Assembly (NCBI GenBank): GCA_964409865.1
Contig: CAYPGE010000004.1
Span: forward strand, 1,740-65,739
Direction: 5' to 3'
Length of the DNA: 64,000 bases
DNA from: an uncultured Pirellulaceae bacterium
Lineage (GTDB): Bacteria; Planctomycetota; Planctomycetia; Pirellulales; Pirellulaceae
The position numbers and the translations under genes are program-made. Positions 8,639 to 56,736 of this stretch are shown piece after piece. Every line of letters begins with the position of its first letter. Position 1 is the first letter of the stretch. Under the pieces are notes generated by a model that did not search any database, was not told where the DNA came from, and saw nothing but the letters and a program-made list of their open reading frames with translations.

Positions 8639-8842
8639 TGGGGACTGCCAAGGCGGAAACCCACTTTTTGTCCCGCCGGTCATCCCATCATGTTGACAAA
8701 TCTGCAGCACCTACTCTACTCTAGGAACATGCCAATTCAGGTTGTCCGTCAAGGAGCCTCTGCTGGACGAGACCCGGCTGGCCGGCTGGCAAACCGTCAA
8801 GATCCCATTTTCGTTCCTAAGAACCACGCAAAGGAGGAGGCG

Positions 8843-10519
8843 ATGAACCGATGGTCGCTCGTTGCTGTCGTCGCGGGGGTGCTATCCCTCGCTTTGGGTC
8901 CGCCCCTCGGCACGGCCGCGGACCAGAACGCCAGCCAGGACTTTGTTCTGACCGGTCCGGTGGTGGTGCCGCTGGAGGAAGTGCCGGCCTTTGGAAAGGA
9001 AGAGGCGGCCGGCCGAGTCCAGTTCCGCACTCCGCGGGGCCAGTCCGCGCAGTGTGTGCCGACGGCCAGTAGCGAGGTGAAGGCCTACCCGGCGCTGAAG
9101 TCCAAGCGTCCGCTGTACGGGTCGGTCAAGTTCGAGGGCGACCCCTCCGACCCCGCAATCGGCACGACCTTTCACTTCGTCTTGGACGAAGCGGGCGAAG
9201 CGGAAAAGAAGCCCGACGCCGGTGGGGGCACCGGCGACGCGAAGCCCCCGGCCGAAACGCCGAAGACGGCTGGCCAGACGCAAACCGGCAAGCCTTCACT
9301 GCTGAAAGAGCTGGCCAAGAACCTTGCAGTCCCGTCTCGCCCGGCGGATCCGTTTGCCCGACCGCCCCTCCAGGTCATCAAGCAGACGTACGACCTGCTG
9401 TACTTTGACCGCAATGGAGATTTGGACCTGACGAACGATGGCGTCGTCCGGCTGACCGACAAACCCGTCTTCGAGGCGATGCCGGCAGGCCAAGTGCGAG
9501 GACTTTCCGGGGAGATCGAGGTGGCTTTTGACTTCGGTCCACCCCTGGGCAAACAGCCTGTCCCCATCGCGGTCACGGTTCTCCCTTATCCGCAGGTCGA
9601 CGGCCGTTTCCTTCTCCAAAACGTAAACGGGATCGGCTTTTCCTCCTATCGTGGCATGGGATATGTGAATTTCACGTCCAAGACCGTACGGCGTGGCGCG
9701 ATCAAGCTCGGCGAGGAACGGTACGTGACGTGGCTAAGCCAGGCGATGATCATCACGGGCCGGTACGACCGGCCCTACACGCGGCTGGAATTGCTGCGTG
9801 TGGATCGTCCCGCGAGCCCGGGGCTCTTGCAGCCAGGCTTTTTGGGCGGGGTCCATTTTGTCGGCCAGCAACTCGCGTCCATCTCCACGACGCCGTTGGG
9901 CGACAAGCTGATCATTGAGCCGTACCGCGGCGATACCGGCTTTCTGGAAATCGGTCCGGGTGGCAGGGCCATCACGGAAATGGGCTTGGCCGGGACACTG
10001 GTTCCCCAGACGGGGACACCGTTGATGGCAGCCCGGCTCAGTTCGTATCCTTTTCCCGCAACTCTGCCCCGCCGCTACACGCTGCCGGTGGGCGACTATA
10101 CCCTGCCGTCGCTGACCGCTCAGTATGGCCGCCTGCGATTCAGCGGCCGCATCCAGGCAGTGCCTGCCGCGGTTTCCGCATCGTCCGCCAAGCAGCCCAC
10201 GTTCCCGGTGCAAATCCGCAAAGACGCTCGGTTTTTGTTGGAATTCACCGGAAAGCCTGAGGTCGTGTTCTCAGCCCCGACCAAGGACAAGTCATTCCGC
10301 CCCGGAGACAAGGTCGCTATCCGGGCGATGTTGACCGAGCCGTGGCAGAATTTCCAGATCACGGGATTGTGGGACCTGACGAAAAAGGAACGGGACGTCA
10401 CGTACCGGAGGGAAGGCGGCGATATCGTCGTGCCTCAGTATGCCCGGCTCGATCCGACCATCGCGATCAAGAACGCCGCTGGAAAAACTGTGGCCGAGGG
10501 CACGATGCCCTTTGGCTGA
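8843..10519 (+). CDS. Secreted hypothetical protein (558 aa as conventionally called; possible UGA recoding extension to 10669)
   Basis: Track ORF 8690..10519 trimmed to ATG 8843, directly preceded by AAGGAGGAGG. Signal peptide MNRWSLVAVVAGVLSLALGPPLGTAADQ. The same frame stays open and coding-like for 49 codons beyond TGA 10517-10519. Confidence 0.8.
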   Translation: MNRWSLVAVVAGVLSLALGPPLGTAADQNASQDFVLTGPVVVPLEEVPAFGKEEAAGRVQFRTPRGQSAQCVPTASSEVKAYPALKSKRPLYGSVKFEGDPSDPAIGTTFHFVLDEAGEAEKKPDAGGGTGDAKPPAETPKTAGQTQTGKPSLLKELAKNLAVPSRPADPFARPPLQVIKQTYDLLYFDRNGDLDLTNDGVVRLTDKPVFEAMPAGQVRGLSGEIEVAFDFGPPLGKQPVPIAVTVLPYPQVDGRFLLQNVNGIGFSSYRGMGYVNFTSKTVRRGAIKLGEERYVTWLSQAMIITGRYDRPYTRLELLRVDRPASPGLLQPGFLGGVHFVGQQLASISTTPLGDKLIIEPYRGDTGFLEIGPGGRAITEMGLAGTLVPQTGTPLMAARLSSYPFPATLPRRYTLPVGDYTLPSLTAQYGRLRFSGRIQAVPAAVSASSAKQPTFPVQIRKDARFLLEFTGKPEVVFSAPTKDKSFRPGDKVAIRAMLTEPWQNFQITGLWDLTKKERDVTYRREGGDIVVPQYARLDPTIAIKNAAGKTVAEGTMPFG

Positions 10520-10838
10520 GGCGGCACCTGCGGGTACTCGTGGCGAGTACCAACGGACCTCGAAGTCTCCGGCCAGCAAGAAACCTTTGTCGCGACGCTC
10601 AGCTACGACACGCTGGAACTCTACGGCAAGATGGAGGCGACGCTGCCGATCGTCATCCAGGGGAAATGACATCACGAACGAATCGCCGACGGCCGAGGAG
10701 GCACACCGGATCTCCGCCGAACTGGACGCACCTTCGCTCCAGGCCGAGTCCCCGCCGGCGCTGCTCCTCCTGCCCAAGCTAAAGACCGCCGAGCAGGCCG
10801 CCCAGGTGCAGAAGGGCGACTGGGACGTGATGCGGTTC

Positions 10839-11463: not shown

Positions 11464-12315
11464 TCATTCTTGCCCTGCGGACCGCAGGGTGAACACGGTG
11501 ATTTCCGGCCGGACGTTGAAGCGGACTTGGAGTAAGTGTCCGAGTCCGCGGTTGATGTACAGGCGTCGGCCGTCGGCCAGCGGAATCTCGCCTGCGACGT
11601 AACGCCGATTCCGCACCGGCAGGATCGGGGGTGGCAGGAAGGGCGGTTTGCACTGGCCGCCGTGCGTGTGCCCAGCGAGAATCCAGCCGCGGAATGGGCC
11701 CCACCCCGGCTTGTCGGCTCCATCTGGATTGTGGCAGAGTGCAATGGCGGCCTGCGTGGGGCTGATCCCACTCAGTGCCCGCTCCGGCGCGAAAGCCCCG
11801 CTCCACAGGTCGTCGACTCCTGCAAAGGTCAATCCGTCCACCGCGGCGGACTCATTTCGTAGCACCTGCACTCCGACTCGTGTGAGTTCTCCAGCTACGT
11901 CATCCGCCACATCGGGCATGGACCAGCGGAATCCGTAGTCGTGGTTGCCGAGTACTGCCAAAGATGCCAGACGCGGTTTGGGAAGGTGAGTCAGGATCTC
12001 GCGAAGTTGCCGCAACTGCTTCGGCTCGTGATACGTGATCAAGTCGCCGGTGATCAGCAGAATGTCCGGCTTCAATTCGGCGACCGTCTGCAGACAGTGG
12101 ACGATGTACGCATCGTCGACGCGCGGCCCCACGTGCAAATCGCTGATCTGAATCAGACGCCTACCGACCAGGGACGCCGGCAACGCCACCACCGGCAACG
12201 GGCGCTGCACCACTTCGACCCAATGCGGCTCGATGCCGAACGTGTAGCCCAGCACGCCAGCCGCCCCTGCGGCGGCGATGCCTCGAGTGTAACGCAAGAA
12301 TCGGCGGCGATTCAT
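11464..12315 (-). CDS. Metallophosphoesterase (calcineurin-like) with Tat-type signal
   Basis: Trimmed to MNRRRFLRYTRGIAAAGAAG. Phosphoesterase motifs are present: ISDLHVG, ITGDL, VLGNHDY and GHTHGG. Confidence 0.9.
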   Translation of the reverse strand: MNRRRFLRYTRGIAAAGAAGVLGYTFGIEPHWVEVVQRPLPVVALPASLVGRRLIQISDLHVGPRVDDAYIVHCLQTVAELKPDILLITGDLITYHEPKQLRQLREILTHLPKPRLASLAVLGNHDYGFRWSMPDVADDVAGELTRVGVQVLRNESAAVDGLTFAGVDDLWSGAFAPERALSGISPTQAAIALCHNPDGADKPGWGPFRGWILAGHTHGGQCKPPFLPPPILPVRNRRYVAGEIPLADGRRLYINRGLGHLLQVRFNVRPEITVFTLRSAGQE

Positions 12316-12562
12316 AGAACGAAGTGTGAGAAAGGGCGGAACTCTCCCCAGGGCAAACAAGCCAGGTCACCTGATTAGCATACGGCCGGACTCCGGCGGC
12401 GACCAGCCCTCGAGGCTTTCCACCTGGAACTTGAGCAGCATCTTGAACGTGAACGTGGCCTGTGTTGCAGGGACATTGAATTCCGGTTATCGTGTTGATA
12501 TTGTATCAGCAGTTGAAAATCGTCCTTGCTTAAGCGGCCAAGTCCGCGGGAGGAGTGACATC

Positions 12563-13498
12563 ATGTGCGATCGTTCCCGACGAGAGTTCCTGATTGGTTC
12601 GGCCGCCGCCGGGTTGTTGGCGGCTCGGCCTGATTTGCTGTTGGGGCAAACGTCTGCCAAGTCGGCCGACATGGCCGTTACGCGGTGGAGCGGGACCAAG
12701 CCGGCAGCGGATGCGGCCATGAAGGACGTCGCCGTCAAGCTTACCGAACAAGCGATCAACGCCCTGGGCGGGATGAAGCGATTTGTGAGCCGGGGCGACG
12801 TGGTTTGGGTCAAGCCCAATATCGGCTGGGATCGTACTCCCGAAACCGCGGCGAACACGAACCCCGACGTGGTGGCCACCATTATCCGTCTGTGCTTCGA
12901 TGCCGGCGCCAAGACCGTCAAGGTGGGCGACCACCCGTGCGACGTGGCCGAGAAGACATACGTGGCCAGCGGCATTGCTAACGCAGCCCGCGAAGCAGGA
13001 GCCAAGGTCGTGTTCCTGGACAAGACGCGATTCAAAGAAGCCAAGATTGGCGGCGAACTGGTGAAGACCATTCCCGTCTACCCGGAGATCATCGAGTCGG
13101 ACTTGGTGATCAACGTCCCGATCGTCAAGCATCATCGCTTGGCCGGCCTGACGATGTGCATGAAGAACTACATGGGCGTGATCGACAAGCGGAACACATT
13201 CCATCAGGCGATCGCCCCCAGTCTCGCAGACTTGACACGCTTCATGAAGCCGCGTTTGTGTATCCTGGACGCGACTCGCATGCTCAAGGCGAACGGACCT
13301 AAAGGTGGCAAACTGGAAGACGTCGAGACGAAATGGATGCTGGCCGCCGGCGTGGACATCGTGGCCTTGGACGCGTGGGGCGCGGAAGCCATCGGGCGGA
13401 AGCCGACGGACATCGAATCGATTGTCAAAGGCCAGGAGTACGGCCTCGGCAAGATCGACTACCGGTCGCTCGCGTTGCGCGAGTTGGCCGTGTCGTGA
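12563..13498 (+). CDS. DUF362-domain protein with twin-arginine signal
   Basis: Track ORF 12326..13498 trimmed to ATG 12563 (GGGAGGAG upstream). MCDRSRREFLIGSAAAG is a Tat signal. VWVKPNIGWDR...VINVPIVKHHRLAGLTMCMKNYMGVI is typical of DUF362 (from memory). Confidence 0.85.
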   Translation: MCDRSRREFLIGSAAAGLLAARPDLLLGQTSAKSADMAVTRWSGTKPAADAAMKDVAVKLTEQAINALGGMKRFVSRGDVVWVKPNIGWDRTPETAANTNPDVVATIIRLCFDAGAKTVKVGDHPCDVAEKTYVASGIANAAREAGAKVVFLDKTRFKEAKIGGELVKTIPVYPEIIESDLVINVPIVKHHRLAGLTMCMKNYMGVIDKRNTFHQAIAPSLADLTRFMKPRLCILDATRMLKANGPKGGKLEDVETKWMLAAGVDIVALDAWGAEAIGRKPTDIESIVKGQEYGLGKIDYRSLALRELAVS

Positions 13499-13520
13499 TT
13501 CCCCTTTACTTGGGACAGAG

Positions 13521-15236
13521 ATGCTGAAGTTCCGATCCCTGTGGCGCTGGGTCACGTTGCGGCGACTGGTCCAGGTCGCGATGCTGCTGGTGTTTCTCGG
13601 CCTGGTCGTGGCGGCGCAGGCGAGGGGCGGCGAACGGATGCCGAGCGCGTGGCTGAAGGCGTTTTTCGCGATCGACCCGCTGCTGTTGATCGCTACGGCG
13701 CTGTCCGCGCATGCGGTGCCGGCGCTGCTGCTCGCGTCGTTGGGACTGGTTGCCGTCACGCTGGTCCTGGGGCGCGTCTTCTGCGGCTGGGTATGCCCGC
13801 TGGGCACGCTCCACGACATCGCGAGCCGCGTGCTGTTCTGGATCTGGCCAGACCGGCGGCGGCGCGACCACTGGTCGCCGTGGCAGAGGACGAAGTACTT
13901 GCTGCTGGTCGGCCTGCTGGTCATGGCGCTGTTCGGCAGCCATTGGGGCACGATTTTCGATCCGTTGGTGCTTCTGTACCGAACGACGACTACGGCTTTG
14001 CTGCCGGCGCTTCAGTGGGGCGTGCAGGCGCCGTCGACGGCGATCTACCACTACGATCCCGAAACCGCACCCGCGCCGGTGCGGCCGGTGGCCGAACGGG
14101 TCCATCCCTTCGTACGGGACTACGCGAGCGAGCCGGCGTACGAATTCCTGCGCGATCACGTCTTCGGCCTGCGGACGCATACGTTTCTGGGCGGCGGCCT
14201 GATTCTGGGATTCTTCCTTCTCACATTGGCGTTGAACCGCTACCGGCCGCGGTTCTGGTGCCGGTATCTGTGTCCGCTGGGAGCGTTGCTGGGCATCTTC
14301 TCCCTGCGGCCACTGGTGCGCCGCGCGGTGCAAACCGGTAACTGCAACCAGTGCGATCTGTGCGCCACGTCGTGTCACGGAGCGGCCTCGGGCGCGCCGG
14401 GCGAGCAGTGGAAGGCGGCGGAGTGCCTGGGCTGTCTGAATTGTACGGATTCGTGCCGCCGGGACGGGTTGCGGTTCACACTCACGCTTCCGTGGCGCAA
14501 GGAACCGCCCGTCGAGGGCCTGGATCTGTCACGGCGATCGGTGTTTGGCGCTGCCCTGGGCGGCGTCGCCGGATTGTGCTTGTTGCGAATCACACCGCAG
14601 GCCCGCGGTTCGCTGCCGCAGGAGCACCTGATTCGTCCGCCCGGCTCGCTTCCCGAACGCGAGTTTCTCGAACGTTGCACGTCGTGCGGCATGTGCATCA
14701 AAATCTGCCCGACGCACGGCTTGCAACCGGCGTTGTGGGAAGCCGGGCTGGAGGGGCTGTGGACGCCCCGGTTGGTTCCCCGCTTGGGGTGGTGCGAATC
14801 CGAGTGCACGGCCTGCACGCACGTCTGTCCGACCCAGGCCATTCGGCCGCTGACGGTCGAGCAGAAGAAGCAAGTGCGGATCGGGCTGGCGTCGTTCGAC
14901 GTGACCCGCTGTATTCCCTACGCCTACGGCCGGGAGTGCATTGTTTGCGAGGAACACTGCCCGGTCCCCGACAAAGCGATCTACGTGGTCGAGACGGAGG
15001 TGATTGCCCGCAATGGCCAGAAGATCGTCATCAAGCAGCCGCGCGTCGATCCCAGCCGCTGTATCGGCTGCGGCATCTGCGAGAACAAGTGTCCTCTGAC
15101 CGACCACCCCGGCGTGCGCGTGCTGAGCACGAACGAAAGCCGCAGCGACTACCAAGCCATCCCCGTCACACCGGACGAAGTCCCCTTGGGCGAGCCGGCG
15201 GACGACGATGACGATCCGTACGCCGCGGACCGCTAA
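13521..15236 (+). CDS. Integral-membrane polyferredoxin (NapH/MauN-like N-terminus plus several 4Fe-4S ferredoxin motifs)
   Basis: Trimmed to MLKFRSLWRWVTLRRLVQVAMLLVFLGL. It has two CxxxCP membrane motifs (CGWVCPLG, CRYLCPLG) and the Cys clusters CNQCDLCATSC, CLGCLNCTDSC, CTSCGMCIKICP, CTACTHVCP, CIVCEEHCP and CIGCGICENKCP. It starts 22 nt after the DUF362 gene. Confidence 0.9.
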   Translation: MLKFRSLWRWVTLRRLVQVAMLLVFLGLVVAAQARGGERMPSAWLKAFFAIDPLLLIATALSAHAVPALLLASLGLVAVTLVLGRVFCGWVCPLGTLHDIASRVLFWIWPDRRRRDHWSPWQRTKYLLLVGLLVMALFGSHWGTIFDPLVLLYRTTTTALLPALQWGVQAPSTAIYHYDPETAPAPVRPVAERVHPFVRDYASEPAYEFLRDHVFGLRTHTFLGGGLILGFFLLTLALNRYRPRFWCRYLCPLGALLGIFSLRPLVRRAVQTGNCNQCDLCATSCHGAASGAPGEQWKAAECLGCLNCTDSCRRDGLRFTLTLPWRKEPPVEGLDLSRRSVFGAALGGVAGLCLLRITPQARGSLPQEHLIRPPGSLPEREFLERCTSCGMCIKICPTHGLQPALWEAGLEGLWTPRLVPRLGWCESECTACTHVCPTQAIRPLTVEQKKQVRIGLASFDVTRCIPYAYGRECIVCEEHCPVPDKAIYVVETEVIARNGQKIVIKQPRVDPSRCIGCGICENKCPLTDHPGVRVLSTNESRSDYQAIPVTPDEVPLGEPADDDDDPYAADR

Positions 15237-15702: not shown

Positions 15703-17031
15703 TTAGATCTGCTCCGGCAGTTGGTAGGGCGCCCGCATGGGGCGCGACAAATAAGCGTTCGCTTCGTCGTCGCCTGGGAAGATCTCCCGCTGCGGGTCCC
15801 AGGTCAACTTGCGGCCTACCCAGCGCACGATGTTGCCCAGATGGCACACGATGGCGGAGCGATGGCCGATCTCGACATCGGCGATGGGCCGCTGGCGCGA
15901 TTGGATGCAAGTGATCCAGTTCGCCAGATGATCGTCGCTAACCGGCAGGCGGACCTTCCATTCGTCTTGCGGCACCTGGGCCAGTTCCGCAGGGTTGGTG
16001 GTCACCTCATTGTTGCCGATGCGGATCTTCCCGTTATCGCCGATGAATGCCGCCCCCGCCGCCGACTCGCCGGGCTCCAGTCGCACCTCGATCCCGTTGG
16101 CATATCGCATTCGCACGCGGAAGCCCTCGCTGCACAGGCGATCGCCGCGGCCGAGTGATTCGGGGGCTTCGTAGACGACGTTGGGCAGCTTGCCGCCTTC
16201 GGCCCAGATCTCGACCGGTCCCGTGTGGTCCATATCCAGGGCCCATTGGATCTGGTCAAATCCATGAGCCCCCGTGCCCGTCATTTCGCCGCCGGAGTAA
16301 GGGCGTAGCGAGATCCATCCGGGCTTGGAACGCTGAACGAAGATGTCGGTGTGGAACGGCACGGGCGCGGTCTGCCCGCACCAGGCGTCCCAATCAAGCC
16401 CCGCCGGCACGTCTTGGCCGGGAAAGCGCGCTTCCCAGGGGCTGGGGTAGTTCATGATCAGCACGGTGTGGATCTTGCCGGCGACGCCGTTGCGCACCAG
16501 TTCGCATCCCAGGCGGTGGTAGCGCATCGACCGCCGTTGCGATCCGGTTTGGAAAACGCGCTGGTACTTGCGCGCGGCCTGGACCATCAGGCGGCCTTCC
16601 TGAATGGTCAGACCGAGCGGCTTTTCGCAGTAGACATCCTTTCCTGCCTGGCAGGCCCGGATGCTGGGCAAGGCGTGCCAGTGATCGGGCGTCGCGACGA
16701 TTACGGCATCGACGTCTTTGGCGTCCAGCAGTTCCCGGTAGTCGGTGTGGGCGCGGCATTTCCGTGCCGCCGCCGTGGTTTCGGCTCGCGTCCGGTCGAA
16801 ATCGGCCACGGCGACGATCCGGCCGGCGGGAGGCAGACGCATCAACTGGTTGCCACGCCGGCCGACACCGATGTAGCCAATCCCGACGCGGTCGCTTGGA
16901 GCTGGACTTCCCGACGCGGCCAGTACGCGGGCGGGAACAAAGTTGGGGGCCAGACCTGCGGCCGCGGCTCCGGTCAGCGAGCGTTGCAGGAACGATCGGC
17001 GTGAACAATTCGTGGATTGAAATCCGTTCAT
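15703..17031 (-). CDS. Gfo/Idh/MocA-family oxidoreductase with twin-arginine signal
   Basis: Track ORF 15703..17520 trimmed to MNGFQSTNCSRRSFLQRSLTGAAAAG (Tat). It has the IGYIGVGRRG Rossmann motif and EKP (YCEKPL), the family signature. Confidence 0.9.
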   Translation of the reverse strand: MNGFQSTNCSRRSFLQRSLTGAAAAGLAPNFVPARVLAASGSPAPSDRVGIGYIGVGRRGNQLMRLPPAGRIVAVADFDRTRAETTAAARKCRAHTDYRELLDAKDVDAVIVATPDHWHALPSIRACQAGKDVYCEKPLGLTIQEGRLMVQAARKYQRVFQTGSQRRSMRYHRLGCELVRNGVAGKIHTVLIMNYPSPWEARFPGQDVPAGLDWDAWCGQTAPVPFHTDIFVQRSKPGWISLRPYSGGEMTGTGAHGFDQIQWALDMDHTGPVEIWAEGGKLPNVVYEAPESLGRGDRLCSEGFRVRMRYANGIEVRLEPGESAAGAAFIGDNGKIRIGNNEVTTNPAELAQVPQDEWKVRLPVSDDHLANWITCIQSRQRPIADVEIGHRSAIVCHLGNIVRWVGRKLTWDPQREIFPGDDEANAYLSRPMRAPYQLPEQI

Positions 17032-17100
17032 TTGTGTCGTCGCTCGGCGACCTTCCCTGTGGCTGTCGTGGTGCGCGGAAAGAACAACTTGTCCCGGTGA

Positions 17101-17137
17101 GTGAAGAAGCCCGGGTTTTTCGGAAAAGCCGGGCTGC
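17101..17137. repeat. Short hairpin repeat, family B
   Basis: gtgaagaagcccgggtttttcggaaaagccgggctgc: agcccgg pairs with ccgggct and tttt with aaaa. It is near-identical to the reverse complement of 28921-28960. Confidence 0.6.
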
Positions 17138-17539
17138 TGGCGCCTTGCCATTACGCTAACGCCTTGAGAGCGAAACATCAATCGTGTTACCGCCGATCCG
17201 CAGGTCAAAAGAAAAATTTTTTCCGGAGGGTTTGCCCGCCTGATTGGACGCGCATAAGATGATCGTGATGCCCGGAGGATGACCGGTTCAAGACGTACCG
17301 CTGCGTCAGGATGCGCAATCGGCGCGCTGTGGTTTGCCTCTGCAAACCCTGTGGTTTTGGCGGCCGTGATCGTTTGGTGTAGACTGTAACGAACTCGCCG
17401 GACTTTCCGTCGCTTTTTCGCGCCGTCTCTTTTGCACACGGGCAAATCGTGGCCTATATTCCAGCAGGCCGGATTTTGGTCCTTCCCGATTGGTCTCAGC
17501 CGGCCCGCTATCATGAGCATCCTGAAACGGCGTCAGCCA

Positions 17540-32628: not shown

Positions 32629-32704
<76 letters not shown>

Positions 32705-54740: not shown

Positions 54741-55059
54741 GAACCGCATCACGTCCCAGTCGCCCTTCTGCACCTGGGCGGCCTGCTCGGCGGTCTTTAG
54801 CTTGGGCAGGAGGAGCAGCGCCGGCGGGGACTCGGCCTGGAGCGAAGGTGCGTCCAGTTCGGCGGAGATCCGGTGTGCCTCCTCGGCCGTCGGCGATTCG
54901 TTCGTGATGTCATTTCCCCTGGATGACGATCGGCAGCGTCGCCTCCATCTTGCCGTAGAGTTCCAGCGTGTCGTAGCTGAGCGTCGCGACAAAGGTTTCT
55001 TGCTGGCCGGAGACTTCGAGGTCCGTTGGTACTCGCCACGAGTACCCGCAGGTGCCGCC

Positions 55060-56736
55060 TCAGCCAAAGGGCATCGTGCCCTCGGCCACAGTTTTTCCAG
55101 CGGCGTTCTTGATCGCGATGGTCGGATCGAGCCGGGCATACTGAGGCACGACGATATCGCCGCCTTCCCTCCGGTACGTGACGTCCCGTTCCTTTTTCGT
55201 CAGGTCCCACAATCCCGTGATCTGGAAATTCTGCCACGGCTCGGTCAACATCGCCCGGATAGCGACCTTGTCTCCGGGGCGGAATGACTTGTCCTTGGTC
55301 GGGGCTGAGAACACGACCTCAGGCTTTCCGGTGAATTCCAACAAAAACCGAGCGTCTTTGCGGATTTGCACCGGGAACGTGGGCTGCTTGGCGGACGATG
55401 CGGAAACCGCGGCAGGCACTGCCTGGATGCGGCCGCTGAATCGCAGGCGGCCATACTGAGCGGTCAGCGACGGCAGGGTATAGTCGCCCACCGGCAGCGT
55501 GTAGCGGCGGGGCAGAGTTGCGGGAAAAGGATACGAACTGAGCCGGGCTGCCATCAACGGTGTCCCCGTCTGGGGAACCAGTGTCCCGGCCAAGCCCATT
55601 TCCGTGATGGCCCTGCCACCCGGACCGATTTCCAGAAAGCCGGTATCGCCGCGGTACGGCTCAATGATCAGCTTGTCGCCCAACGGCGTCGTGGAGATGG
55701 ACGCGAGTTGCTGGCCGACAAAATGGACCCCGCCCAAAAAGCCTGGCTGCAAGAGCCCCGGGCTCGCGGGACGATCCACACGCAGCAATTCCAGCCGCGT
55801 GTAGGGCCGGTCGTACCGGCCCGTGATGATCATCGCCTGGCTTAGCCACGTCACGTACCGTTCCTCGCCGAGCTTGATCGCGCCACGCCGTACGGTCTTG
55901 GACGTGAAATTCACATATCCCATGCCACGATAGGAGGAAAAGCCGATCCCGTTTACGTTTTGGAGAAGGAAACGGCCGTCGACCTGCGGATAAGGGAGAA
56001 CCGTGACCGCGATGGGGACAGGCTGTTTGCCCAGGGGTGGACCGAAGTCAAAAGCCACCTCGATCTCCCCGGAAAGTCCTCGCACTTGGCCTGCCGGCAT
56101 CGCCTCGAAGACGGGTTTGTCGGTCAGCCGGACGACGCCATCGTTCGTCAGGTCCAAATCTCCATTGCGGTCAAAGTACAGCAGGTCGTACGTCTGCTTG
56201 ATGACCTGGAGGGGCGGTCGGGCAAACGGATCCGCCGGGCGAGACGGGACTGCAAGGTTCTTGGCCAGCTCTTTCAGCAGTGAAGGCTTGCCGGTTTGCG
56301 TCTGGCCAGCCGTCTTCGGCGTTTCGGCCGGGGGCTTCGCGTCGCCGGTGCCCCCACCGGCGTCGGGCTTCTTTTCCGCTTCGCCCGCTTCGTCCAAGAC
56401 GAAGTGAAAGGTCGTGCCGATTGCGGGGTCGGAGGGGTCGCCCTCGAACTTGACCGACCCGTACAGCGGACGCTTGGACTTCAGCGCCGGGTAGGCCTTC
56501 ACCTCGCTACTGGCCGTCGGCACACACTGCGCGGACTGGCCCCGCGGAGTGCGGAACTGGACTCGGCCGGCCGCCTCTTCCTTTCCAAAGGCCGGCACTT
56601 CCTCCAGCGGCACCACCACCGGACCGGTCAGAACAAAGTCCTGGCTGGCGTTCTGGTCCGCGGCCGTGCCGAGGGGCGGACCCAAAGCGAGGGATAGCAC
56701 CCCCGCGACGACAGCAACGAGCGACCATCGGTTCAT
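55060..56736 (-). CDS. Secreted hypothetical protein with possible UGA-recoded extension (mirror copy; the extension would reach 54910)
   Basis: Mirror of 8843..10519. Confidence 0.8.
   Translation of the reverse strand: MNRWSLVAVVAGVLSLALGPPLGTAADQNASQDFVLTGPVVVPLEEVPAFGKEEAAGRVQFRTPRGQSAQCVPTASSEVKAYPALKSKRPLYGSVKFEGDPSDPAIGTTFHFVLDEAGEAEKKPDAGGGTGDAKPPAETPKTAGQTQTGKPSLLKELAKNLAVPSRPADPFARPPLQVIKQTYDLLYFDRNGDLDLTNDGVVRLTDKPVFEAMPAGQVRGLSGEIEVAFDFGPPLGKQPVPIAVTVLPYPQVDGRFLLQNVNGIGFSSYRGMGYVNFTSKTVRRGAIKLGEERYVTWLSQAMIITGRYDRPYTRLELLRVDRPASPGLLQPGFLGGVHFVGQQLASISTTPLGDKLIIEPYRGDTGFLEIGPGGRAITEMGLAGTLVPQTGTPLMAARLSSYPFPATLPRRYTLPVGDYTLPSLTAQYGRLRFSGRIQAVPAAVSASSAKQPTFPVQIRKDARFLLEFTGKPEVVFSAPTKDKSFRPGDKVAIRAMLTEPWQNFQITGLWDLTKKERDVTYRREGGDIVVPQYARLDPTIAIKNAAGKTVAEGTMPFG

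Follow-up and report, generated by a model that had tools for sequence, protein, structure and literature searches.

Conserved in-frame UGA codons and stem-loops in exported beta-sandwich proteins of Planctomycetota: a candidate selenoprotein family

In E. coli fdhF/FdhA-type genes, selenocysteine (Sec, U) is encoded by an in-frame UGA with a short intracoding stem-loop, and in Proteobacteria fdhA often lies beside the genes for Sec insertion (PMC4807772). The model of the bacterial Sec insertion sequence (bSECIS) has a loop of 3-9 nt, a stem of 4-16 bp, a G within the first two loop positions, 16-37 nt from the UGA to the loop and a minimum free energy of at most -7.5 kcal/mol (PMC13188914, Fig 2A), and a 2026 catalogue lists 119 prokaryotic selenoprotein families with a domain model for each entry (PMC13188914, Table 1). 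Here we describe a gene of this kind in a 64,000-nt stretch of contig CAYPGE010000004.1 (positions 1,740 to 65,739 of the forward strand; assembly GCA_964409865.1) from an uncultured Pirellulaceae bacterium, a stretch we call the window. The gene starts at ATG 8843 on the plus strand, reaches its first in-frame stop, TGA 10517-10519, after ...KTVAEGTMPFG, and stays open past that codon for another 49 codons (GGTCGYSWRVPTDLEVSGQQETFVATLSYDTLELYGKMEATLPIVIQGK) to TGA 10667-10669. From the sequence comparisons below we put the probability that UGA 10517-10519 encodes Sec at roughly 90%.

The gene resembles the fdhF/FdhA type in its in-frame UGA and short intracoding stem-loop (21 nt from UGA to loop, within the range of 16-37 nt) and in that relatives of it adjoin Sec-insertion genes, as fdhA does. 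It differs in that the protein is unrelated, is a predicted exported all-beta immunoglobulin (Ig)/macroglobulin (MG)-like protein without the molybdenum/tungsten-pterin domain, and has a SECIS sequence that is almost invariant across a whole phylum, with no Cys forms found. The C-terminal GCUG selenenylsulfide of thioredoxin reductase is a chemical analogy only: there, too, Sec lies near Cys in a flexible loop, and one subfamily of the present proteins has a vicinal pair (MPFC-U), but homology is lacking, fold and location differ, and the redox role of the present family is putative. Planctomycetes commonly carry DUF1573, a beta-sandwich domain. A DUF1573 selenoprotein, likewise predicted and likewise bearing a short U...C motif, has been listed (PF07610, UGC motif; PMC13188914), but the window protein has no PF07610 match, and the motif of its family is U-G-G-T-C or C-U rather than UGC.

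Neither Pfam (E up to 0.01) nor NCBIfam (full protein or C-terminal module, E up to 1) has a family for the protein, which matched none of the catalogued family models tested at these thresholds (PMC13188914). No PDB chain has sequence similarity to it, the tail likewise gave no match in these libraries, and in our literature searches we came upon no earlier account of such a planctomycete selenoprotein. The catalogue's few entries with cd or PTHR models only are thioredoxin-like, CopZ, BtuF and Fe-S proteins, whose folds we take to differ from the all-beta model described below. One candidate, 'Hypothetical protein DG' (GUxG motif, NF049953), was rejected: it comes from Desulfosediminicola, and the window protein has no NCBIfam match. 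Public annotation labels both halves of the gene 'hypothetical protein'. According to the deep-Sep paper, selenoprotein families without Cys homologues may escape detection, and we think that the present family has been overlooked because no Cys homologue exists. The mechanism would be ordinary for a bacterial selenoprotein gene, and the family appears to be undescribed.

The UGA codon and the reading frame beyond it

The program-made list of open reading frames (ORFs) begins the gene at the upstream ATG 8690; we favor ATG 8843 because the Shine-Dalgarno-like AGGAGGAGG precedes it (Table 1). Counted from there, the full product is 558 + Sec + 49 = 608 residues, rather than the 607 given in the preliminary description, whose other sequence claims (the end of the ORF, the open frame of 49 codons, the 8-bp hairpin, its spacing of 13 nt and the missing U-tract) all hold. 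The N-termini of homologues are by consensus equivalent to that of the window protein, and features of the translation suggest that this N-terminus is a signal peptide.

With the extended protein as query, Sec being entered as Cys, a homologue search gave 86 proteins of 30% identity or more, and 84 of these terminate exactly at ...MPFG. Among 219 homologues (to ~30% identity), 209 terminate at ...[FY][GC], the residue before the TGA; of the other 10, eight are fragments or frameshifts, and two are uninterrupted, with Ser (P0067, which reads straight through the site: ...MPFCSAGTPGYSWRVPKDLKLAGKSETFTITVRYDTLELYGKVEGARKIIVTAE) or Arg (P0317) there (P numbers denote homologous proteins and L numbers related loci). 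When 1.84 billion representative proteins were searched with a profile, 1113 clusters scored E ≤ 1e-3 and 636 of them E ≤ 1e-10. The related loci number 71, were obtained by scanning a single genome for each GTDB species and belong almost entirely to Planctomycetota metagenome-assembled genomes (MAGs), with Thermoguttaceae, Pirellulales, Planctomycetaceae, Phycisphaerae, Sedimentisphaerales and Brocadiaceae represented. Two contigs of the family sit in MAGs of distant phyla (L020, labelled Candidatus Nealsonbacteria, and L025, labelled Bacillota, the latter with a degraded hairpin, UGC UCC); these are probably mis-binned contigs rather than cases of horizontal transfer.

Our DNA set for the family comprised 72 gene copies from about 55-60 Planctomycetota MAGs. 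The codon following MPFG was TGA in all 72, and the true stops of the same genes were divided among TAG (28), TGA (26) and TAA (18). The sense residues found at the site in homologues were Ser, Arg, Gln, Lys and Gly; Trp, which the preliminary description had named as the mark of a simple nonsense change, occurred in none. Since the position is otherwise always TGA, neither a private nonsense mutation nor a sequencing error accounts for the codon.

The preliminary description had also considered that homologues might simply end at the UGA without any equivalent of the tail. The tail is instead kept in frame in more than 100 copies, with a length of 49 codons in 49 of the 72, and tblastn matches reach query residues 605-608, past the stop, in most loci. 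Entropies at the three codon positions of tail codons 13-44 are 0.91/0.76/1.49, the pattern of coding sequence. A profile of the tail only retrieved 121 database 'proteins' of 25-87 amino acids, all hypothetical; in these entries the tail has been called as a gene of its own. The two closest orthologues with DNA (77-78% protein identity) keep the TGA and differ from the window in the tail by 6-8 synonymous and 5 conservative non-synonymous codon changes, and their similarity to it ceases at the second stop codon; judged by these changes, the tail is under purifying selection.

We took the uninterrupted homologue P0067, with Ser at the Sec position, for structure modelling with AlphaFold2. The model is all-beta (predicted local distance difference test score, pLDDT, 87.6; predicted template-modelling score, pTM, 0.82), and in it the tail forms strands 503-506, 517-527 and 534-544 at pLDDT >90, with the Sec-equivalent residue in the loop 493-502.

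The hairpin downstream of the UGA

A perfect 8-bp hairpin (GGTACTCG-TGG-CGAGTACC; RNA arms GGUACUCG-UGG-CGAGUACC) occupies 10533-10551, starting 13 nt after the TGA. With its UGG loop, 8-bp stem, 21 nt from UGA to loop and folding energy of -10.5 kcal/mol, it lies within every bSECIS constraint. A terminator was rejected as its function because no U-tract follows, and nothing terminator-like was found at that place. Rfam matched no SECIS family, whether the whole window was searched or 10450-10700 was scanned permissively; the sole hit, an iron-responsive element (E 8.9), is a chance match.

In the alignment of the 72 copies the eight pairs are formed in 98.6% of pair cells. The eighth, G33-C51, is the least conserved (66/72), and RNAalifold recovers the inner seven; the 7-bp stem with a GUGGC loop that the preliminary description thought more realistic is compatible with this. 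Codon choice within the hairpin departs strongly from that elsewhere in the same genes: Gly is GGG in 63 of 65 cases (18% background), Ser is UCG in 67 of 68 (32% background), Arg is CGA in 63 of 68 and CGG in the remaining 5 (CGA background 11%), and Val is GUA (40) or GUG (26) and never GUC or GUU, which together make up 55% of the background. Third-position entropy is 0.45 in the hairpin versus 1.2-1.5 in flanking codons.

Two pairs show double changes within the family, and further compensatory pairs occur in the wider superfamily. The arms changed together from UAC/GUA to UAU/AUA (V to I; L029, L031 and L047), to UGC/GCA (Y to C with V to A; L061) and to CUC/GGG (Y to L with V to G; L049), from GGG/CCA to GGC/GCA (P to A; L006), and from UCG/CGA to UUG/CAA (S to L with R to Q; L020, L049 and two copies in L056). 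In the distant members L066 and L067 the 8-bp hairpin is shifted in register (GAAUACGC-GUG-GCGUAUUC). By these comparisons, the conservation of the RNA structure exceeds what the peptide alone would impose.

Hairpin and UGA also go together. We counted 106 occurrences of the 17-nt hairpin core (pattern TAYTYRTGGCRRRTR) in the window and the related loci; in 104 of them a TGA stands in frame 5-8 codons upstream, and the two without it are homologues that recently lost Sec. In an independent metagenome scan with the 20-nt hairpin, an in-frame TGA accompanied 115 of the 124 evaluable occurrences among the 119 stretches listed, and the exceptions among these matches had CAA, CGA or a TGA further upstream, with no TGC or TGT.

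Sec genes, a possible Sec-Cys pair and competing explanations

The preliminary description would have taken a lack of Sec-decoding genes as a refutation; such genes are present in related genomes, and in a number of them they lie close to the family gene. By their Pfam domains, selA and selB stand directly upstream on the same strand in six loci (L005, L022, L035, L055, L061 and L063), selB alone does so in L065, and tRNA-Sec (selC) is found within 10 kb in seven (L012, L014, L015, L033, L046, L049 and L060), a call that Rfam RF01852 confirmed in 5 of 5 loci tested. In L060 a SelD-CMD fusion (a SelD-like AIRS domain with a CMD/AhpD-like domain) adjoins the tRNA-Sec. Altogether selA-selB, tRNA-Sec or selD lies within 10 kb in 14 of the 71 related loci, against about one expected by chance on our own estimate (flanks of ~20 kb, genomes of 5-8 Mb).

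Foldseek comparison of the P0067 model with the PDB gave Fn3 (fibronectin type III)-like modules (3pdd, best E 3e-4) and an MG domain (2p9r, target-normalized TM-score 0.65). These best matches place the model with Ig/Fn3/alpha2-macroglobulin MG-type domains, but they are weak and generic, and no thioester or other common functional motif is present. Because beta-sandwiches of the Ig/Fn3/macroglobulin type are all that Foldseek matched, we read the protein, on the strength of the model, as a string of beta-sandwich domains, probably exported, whose final domain would carry Sec in a loop.

In the motif G-U-G-G-T-C-G, Sec would lie four residues before a conserved Cys (a U-x3-C loop). That downstream Cys is at least 90% conserved and is lost along with Sec in three cases, where U and C are replaced by Q and H (L036), by K and H (L071), and by S and P (P0067, in which a new Cys stands just before the site). 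In a sister subfamily, MPFC-U-VADGVREYSW, a Cys directly precedes Sec and the downstream one is gone. Since the two positions vary together, a Sec-Cys pair is suggested; it may form a selenenylsulfide redox couple or serve as a pair of ligands for a soft metal or metalloid, in either case outside the cytoplasm.

On the reading we prefer, 8843-10669 would be a single gene for one exported protein of 608 residues, whose UGA is decoded by the standard bacterial route. The stem-loop at 10533-10551 would serve as SECIS element: SelB, loaded with Sec-tRNA(Sec), would bind it and supply the ribosome with Sec, competing there with release factor 2. Translation would then continue for 49 codons to supply the last three strands of the C-terminal Ig/macroglobulin-like beta-sandwich, placing Sec in a beta-hairpin loop four residues ahead of the conserved Cys. 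The preliminary description had proposed just such an unannotated selenoprotein with a SECIS-like hairpin, and the invariant TGA (72/72), the coding tail, the constraint on the hairpin and the linkage to sel genes in relatives lend it strong support.

Several results weigh against Sec. The preliminary description had expected a homologue with Cys at the aligned position; none was found, as no locus, homologue or listed metagenome match has TGC or TGT there, and neither the tail-profile search (which returned tiny tail ORFs only), the representative search nor the metagenome hairpin scan yielded a Cys homologue. For a selenoprotein family, it is unusual that Cys forms are absent. The 32.8 kb of unique sequence in the window holds no tRNA-Sec, SelA, SelB or SelD; complete Sec machinery is documented in other planctomycetes (PMC4807772), and the Sec competence of the window's own genome would follow from its relatives and from the apparent selection on the tail. 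Folding of the 96-nt region, for the window sequence alone, is no better than that of dinucleotide shuffles (z = 0.48); the hairpin is thus within chance on one sequence, and its significance therefore comes only from comparison. The structural matches, finally, are to generic beta-sandwiches (Ig/Fn3/macroglobulin) only and give no functional lead.

Several other explanations of the UGA and the hairpin can be put forward. Were UGA 10517 a genuine stop, the product would have 558 residues, and the 49 codons would be a separate small gene or non-coding, with the hairpin acting, for example, in mRNA stability or attenuation. Gene callers annotate the locus in this way everywhere (209 truncated proteins and 121 tail ORFs), and UGA is also a true stop in these genomes, ending 26 of the 72 tails; a real stop would, however, drift among TAA, TAG and TGA, yet all 72 copies have TGA, and the tail is always in frame with the upstream ORF, with no requirement for a start codon or ribosome-binding site. 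With two homologues uninterrupted across the site, a tail that completes the beta-sandwich at high confidence in the P0067 model, a hairpin devoid of a U-tract and a gene linked to sel genes, we regard a genuine stop as very improbable. Still less credit goes to a pseudogene (TGG or TGC to TGA) or a sequencing or assembly error confined to this genome, a chance we take to be close to nil: the window is a perfect 31-kb palindrome, which is a sign of assembly artefact, but more than 100 independent gene copies, drawn from separate assemblies and metagenomes, have the same TGA, an independent Joint Genome Institute (JGI) contig encodes an identical truncated product (P0001), no homologue has Trp or Cys at the site, and the related loci, with protein identities of 25 to 91%, are not copies of one contaminant.

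A different possibility is that the hairpin stimulates read-through of the UGA to a standard amino acid (Trp, Cys or Arg, by a near-cognate or suppressor tRNA) without SelB. Stem-loops 3' of stop codons are able to do so, Cys homologues are missing, a few relatives have Arg (CGA) at the site, and Sec insertion itself is a prediction; set against this, the hairpin fits all of the bSECIS constraints, sel genes adjoin the family gene far more often than the roughly one locus in 71 of our estimate, and the co-variation of Cys with the UGA position fits a chalcogen pair, so that we consider such read-through improbable. It might also be argued that the hairpin is a by-product of the peptide G-Y-S-W-R-V-P and has no RNA function, given how highly the residues that the stem encodes are conserved in their own right. 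The synonymous positions are nevertheless fixed to pairing-compatible codons far from background usage, their entropy is well below that of the flanks, and the peptide changes come in pairs that preserve pairing (S/R to L/Q; Y/V to C/A, L/G and Y/I; G/P to G/A); a mere by-product thus seems to us a remote prospect.

Features of the window, neighboring genes and related architectures

The coordinates of the gene and of related sites are collected in Table 1. The window is a perfect palindrome: each base x in 1579-32789 is the reverse complement of base 65579-x, with 0 mismatches, the arms being 31,211 bp long with no spacer and the axis lying between 32789 and 32790 (window 1579-64000). All genes therefore occur twice, including tRNA-Asn at 32629 (+) and 32877 (-), and so does the selenoprotein feature, whose second copy is on the minus strand, where a pattern search found the hairpin motif at 55044. 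A foldback or a chimera made during assembly is the likeliest cause of the palindrome, with biology the less likely one. Elsewhere in the window we found no in-frame TGA extension that was convincing.

Table 1. Positions of the gene features in the window and of related Sec-module sites in other loci
Feature	Sequence	Position	Strand	Remark
Shine-Dalgarno-like AGGAGGAGG	Window	8832..8840	+	2 nt upstream of start codon, direct reading
Predicted Sec-type signal peptide MNRWSLVAVVAGVLSLALGPPLGTAA	Window	8843..8917	+	Positive N-terminus, hydrophobic core, small residues in translation
Coding sequence before Sec codon, 558 codons; all-beta multi-domain exported protein (predicted)	Window	8843..10516	+	
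UGA read as selenocysteine, residue 559 (predicted)	Window	10517..10519	+	TGA conserved in family
Cys codon of U-G-G-T-C motif, likely Sec partner	Window	10529..10531	+	Cys at least 90% conserved
Bacterial SECIS stem-loop, 8-bp stem, UGG loop (predicted)	Window	10533..10551	+	Inside codons G-Y-S-W-R-V-P
49-codon C-terminal extension, last three beta-strands of C-terminal beta-sandwich domain (predicted)	Window	10520..10666	+	
True stop codon TGA	Window	10667..10669	+	Tail length conserved
Mirror gene copy	Window	54910..56736	-	Sec TGA 55060-55062, hairpin 55028-55046; from window palindrome
Second apparent family	L049	11805-13220		TGA 12345-12347
Second apparent family	L046	14403-15827		
Second apparent family	L035	16370-17821		
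Second apparent family	L030, L026, L015, L012, L033			
Further Sec-module site	L012	7862		
Further Sec-module site	L014	8541		
Further Sec-module site	L015	7771		
Further Sec-module site	L033	10064		
Further Sec-module site	L039	4238		
Further Sec-module sites	L065	5692, 7521, 9184		
Further Sec-module sites	L069	6891, 8451, 10064		
Further Sec-module site	L066	10058		
Further Sec-module sites	L067	1430, 3077		

A NapH-like Fer4_5 membrane polyferredoxin recurs near the family gene, in 10 loci and in the window (13248-15233). In the window it is a 662-residue protein with Fer4_5 and 4Fe-4S dicluster domains that follows a DUF362 protein (together 12293-15233, plus strand), and the pair lies 1.6-2.6 kb downstream of the selenoprotein gene with opposite-strand genes between; it is the counterpart of the Fer4_5 neighbor in related loci. 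That this polyferredoxin donates electrons to the family protein is speculative. The tRNA-Sec is itself repeatedly flanked by a Fer4_5 gene (PF12801, NapH-like; L012 1857-4531, L060 2257-5648, L046 17720-19048 and L049 17346-20472), and in L012 a phage-type integrase directly adjoins it; these neighborhoods look like a selenium gene island, possibly a mobile one. In L046 an ORF at 15943-17337 on the minus strand has a deiodinase-like match that starts at profile position 115, together with multihaem cytochrome c domains; if the absent deiodinase-like N-terminus lies on the far side of an in-frame UGA, as it may, this would be a further selenoprotein.

The subfamily of P0298, P0310, P0312, P0320 and P0275 has a hydrophobic insertion before the last strand preceding ...MPFG-U, where the window protein has the loop KKERDVTYRREGGDIVVPQYAR; the insertion resembles a transmembrane hairpin.

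The same U-module and hairpin were observed in proteins of other layouts. A second apparent selenoprotein family, ...FEYG-U-(G)GTC[SA]YSWRVP..., consists of a secreted beta domain of ~180 residues, the TGA and then a polytopic membrane domain of ~290 residues; annotation splits it into two neighboring ORFs, and Pfam has no match for it. A further architecture, ...FEYG-U-GFTC[RGS]YSWRVPKDLADEYH, is present in three tandem copies in a Brocadiaceae MAG, and another, LEYG-U-GGTCEYAWRIP, with the register-shifted hairpin, in a Sumerlaeota MAG (L067) and an unclassified metagenome-assembled chromosome (L066).

These observations can be joined in a tentative scheme, which we hold to be possible but doubtful. 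The Sec/Cys loop and its SECIS would together form a 'Sec cassette' that has spread among exported or membrane-anchored proteins of Planctomycetota, Brocadiaceae and Sumerlaeota, in at least four architectures: the 558+49 family, the ~180-residue beta domain with U and a membrane domain, FEYG-U-GFTC and LEYG-U-GGTCEYAW. With the NapH-like Fer4_5 polyferredoxins beside tRNA-Sec, the cassette proteins would make up an extracytoplasmic selenium-dependent system for redox or metal(loid) handling, and this selenium system would maintain the Sec trait. If that were true, Cys could not substitute for Sec in these proteins, and in many planctomycetes the cassette system, not FdhA, would keep the Sec-decoding trait.

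For the family itself, the bacterial selenoproteome would gain a large member, with at least 1113 clusters at 50% identity and at least 8 copies in one MAG, and for Planctomycetota, whose use of selenium has hardly been studied, it would mean that hundreds of public gene models are truncated or split. It would be an unusual selenoprotein (exported, all-beta and Ig-like rather than thioredoxin-like, with no Cys forms), of the kind that falls in the blind spot of predictors dependent on Cys homologues. A near-invariant SECIS overlapping a conserved peptide would offer a clean natural system for studying mutual constraint between RNA and protein, and the linkage to selA-selB and tRNA-Sec may provide a route to understanding why these bacteria retain the Sec machinery.

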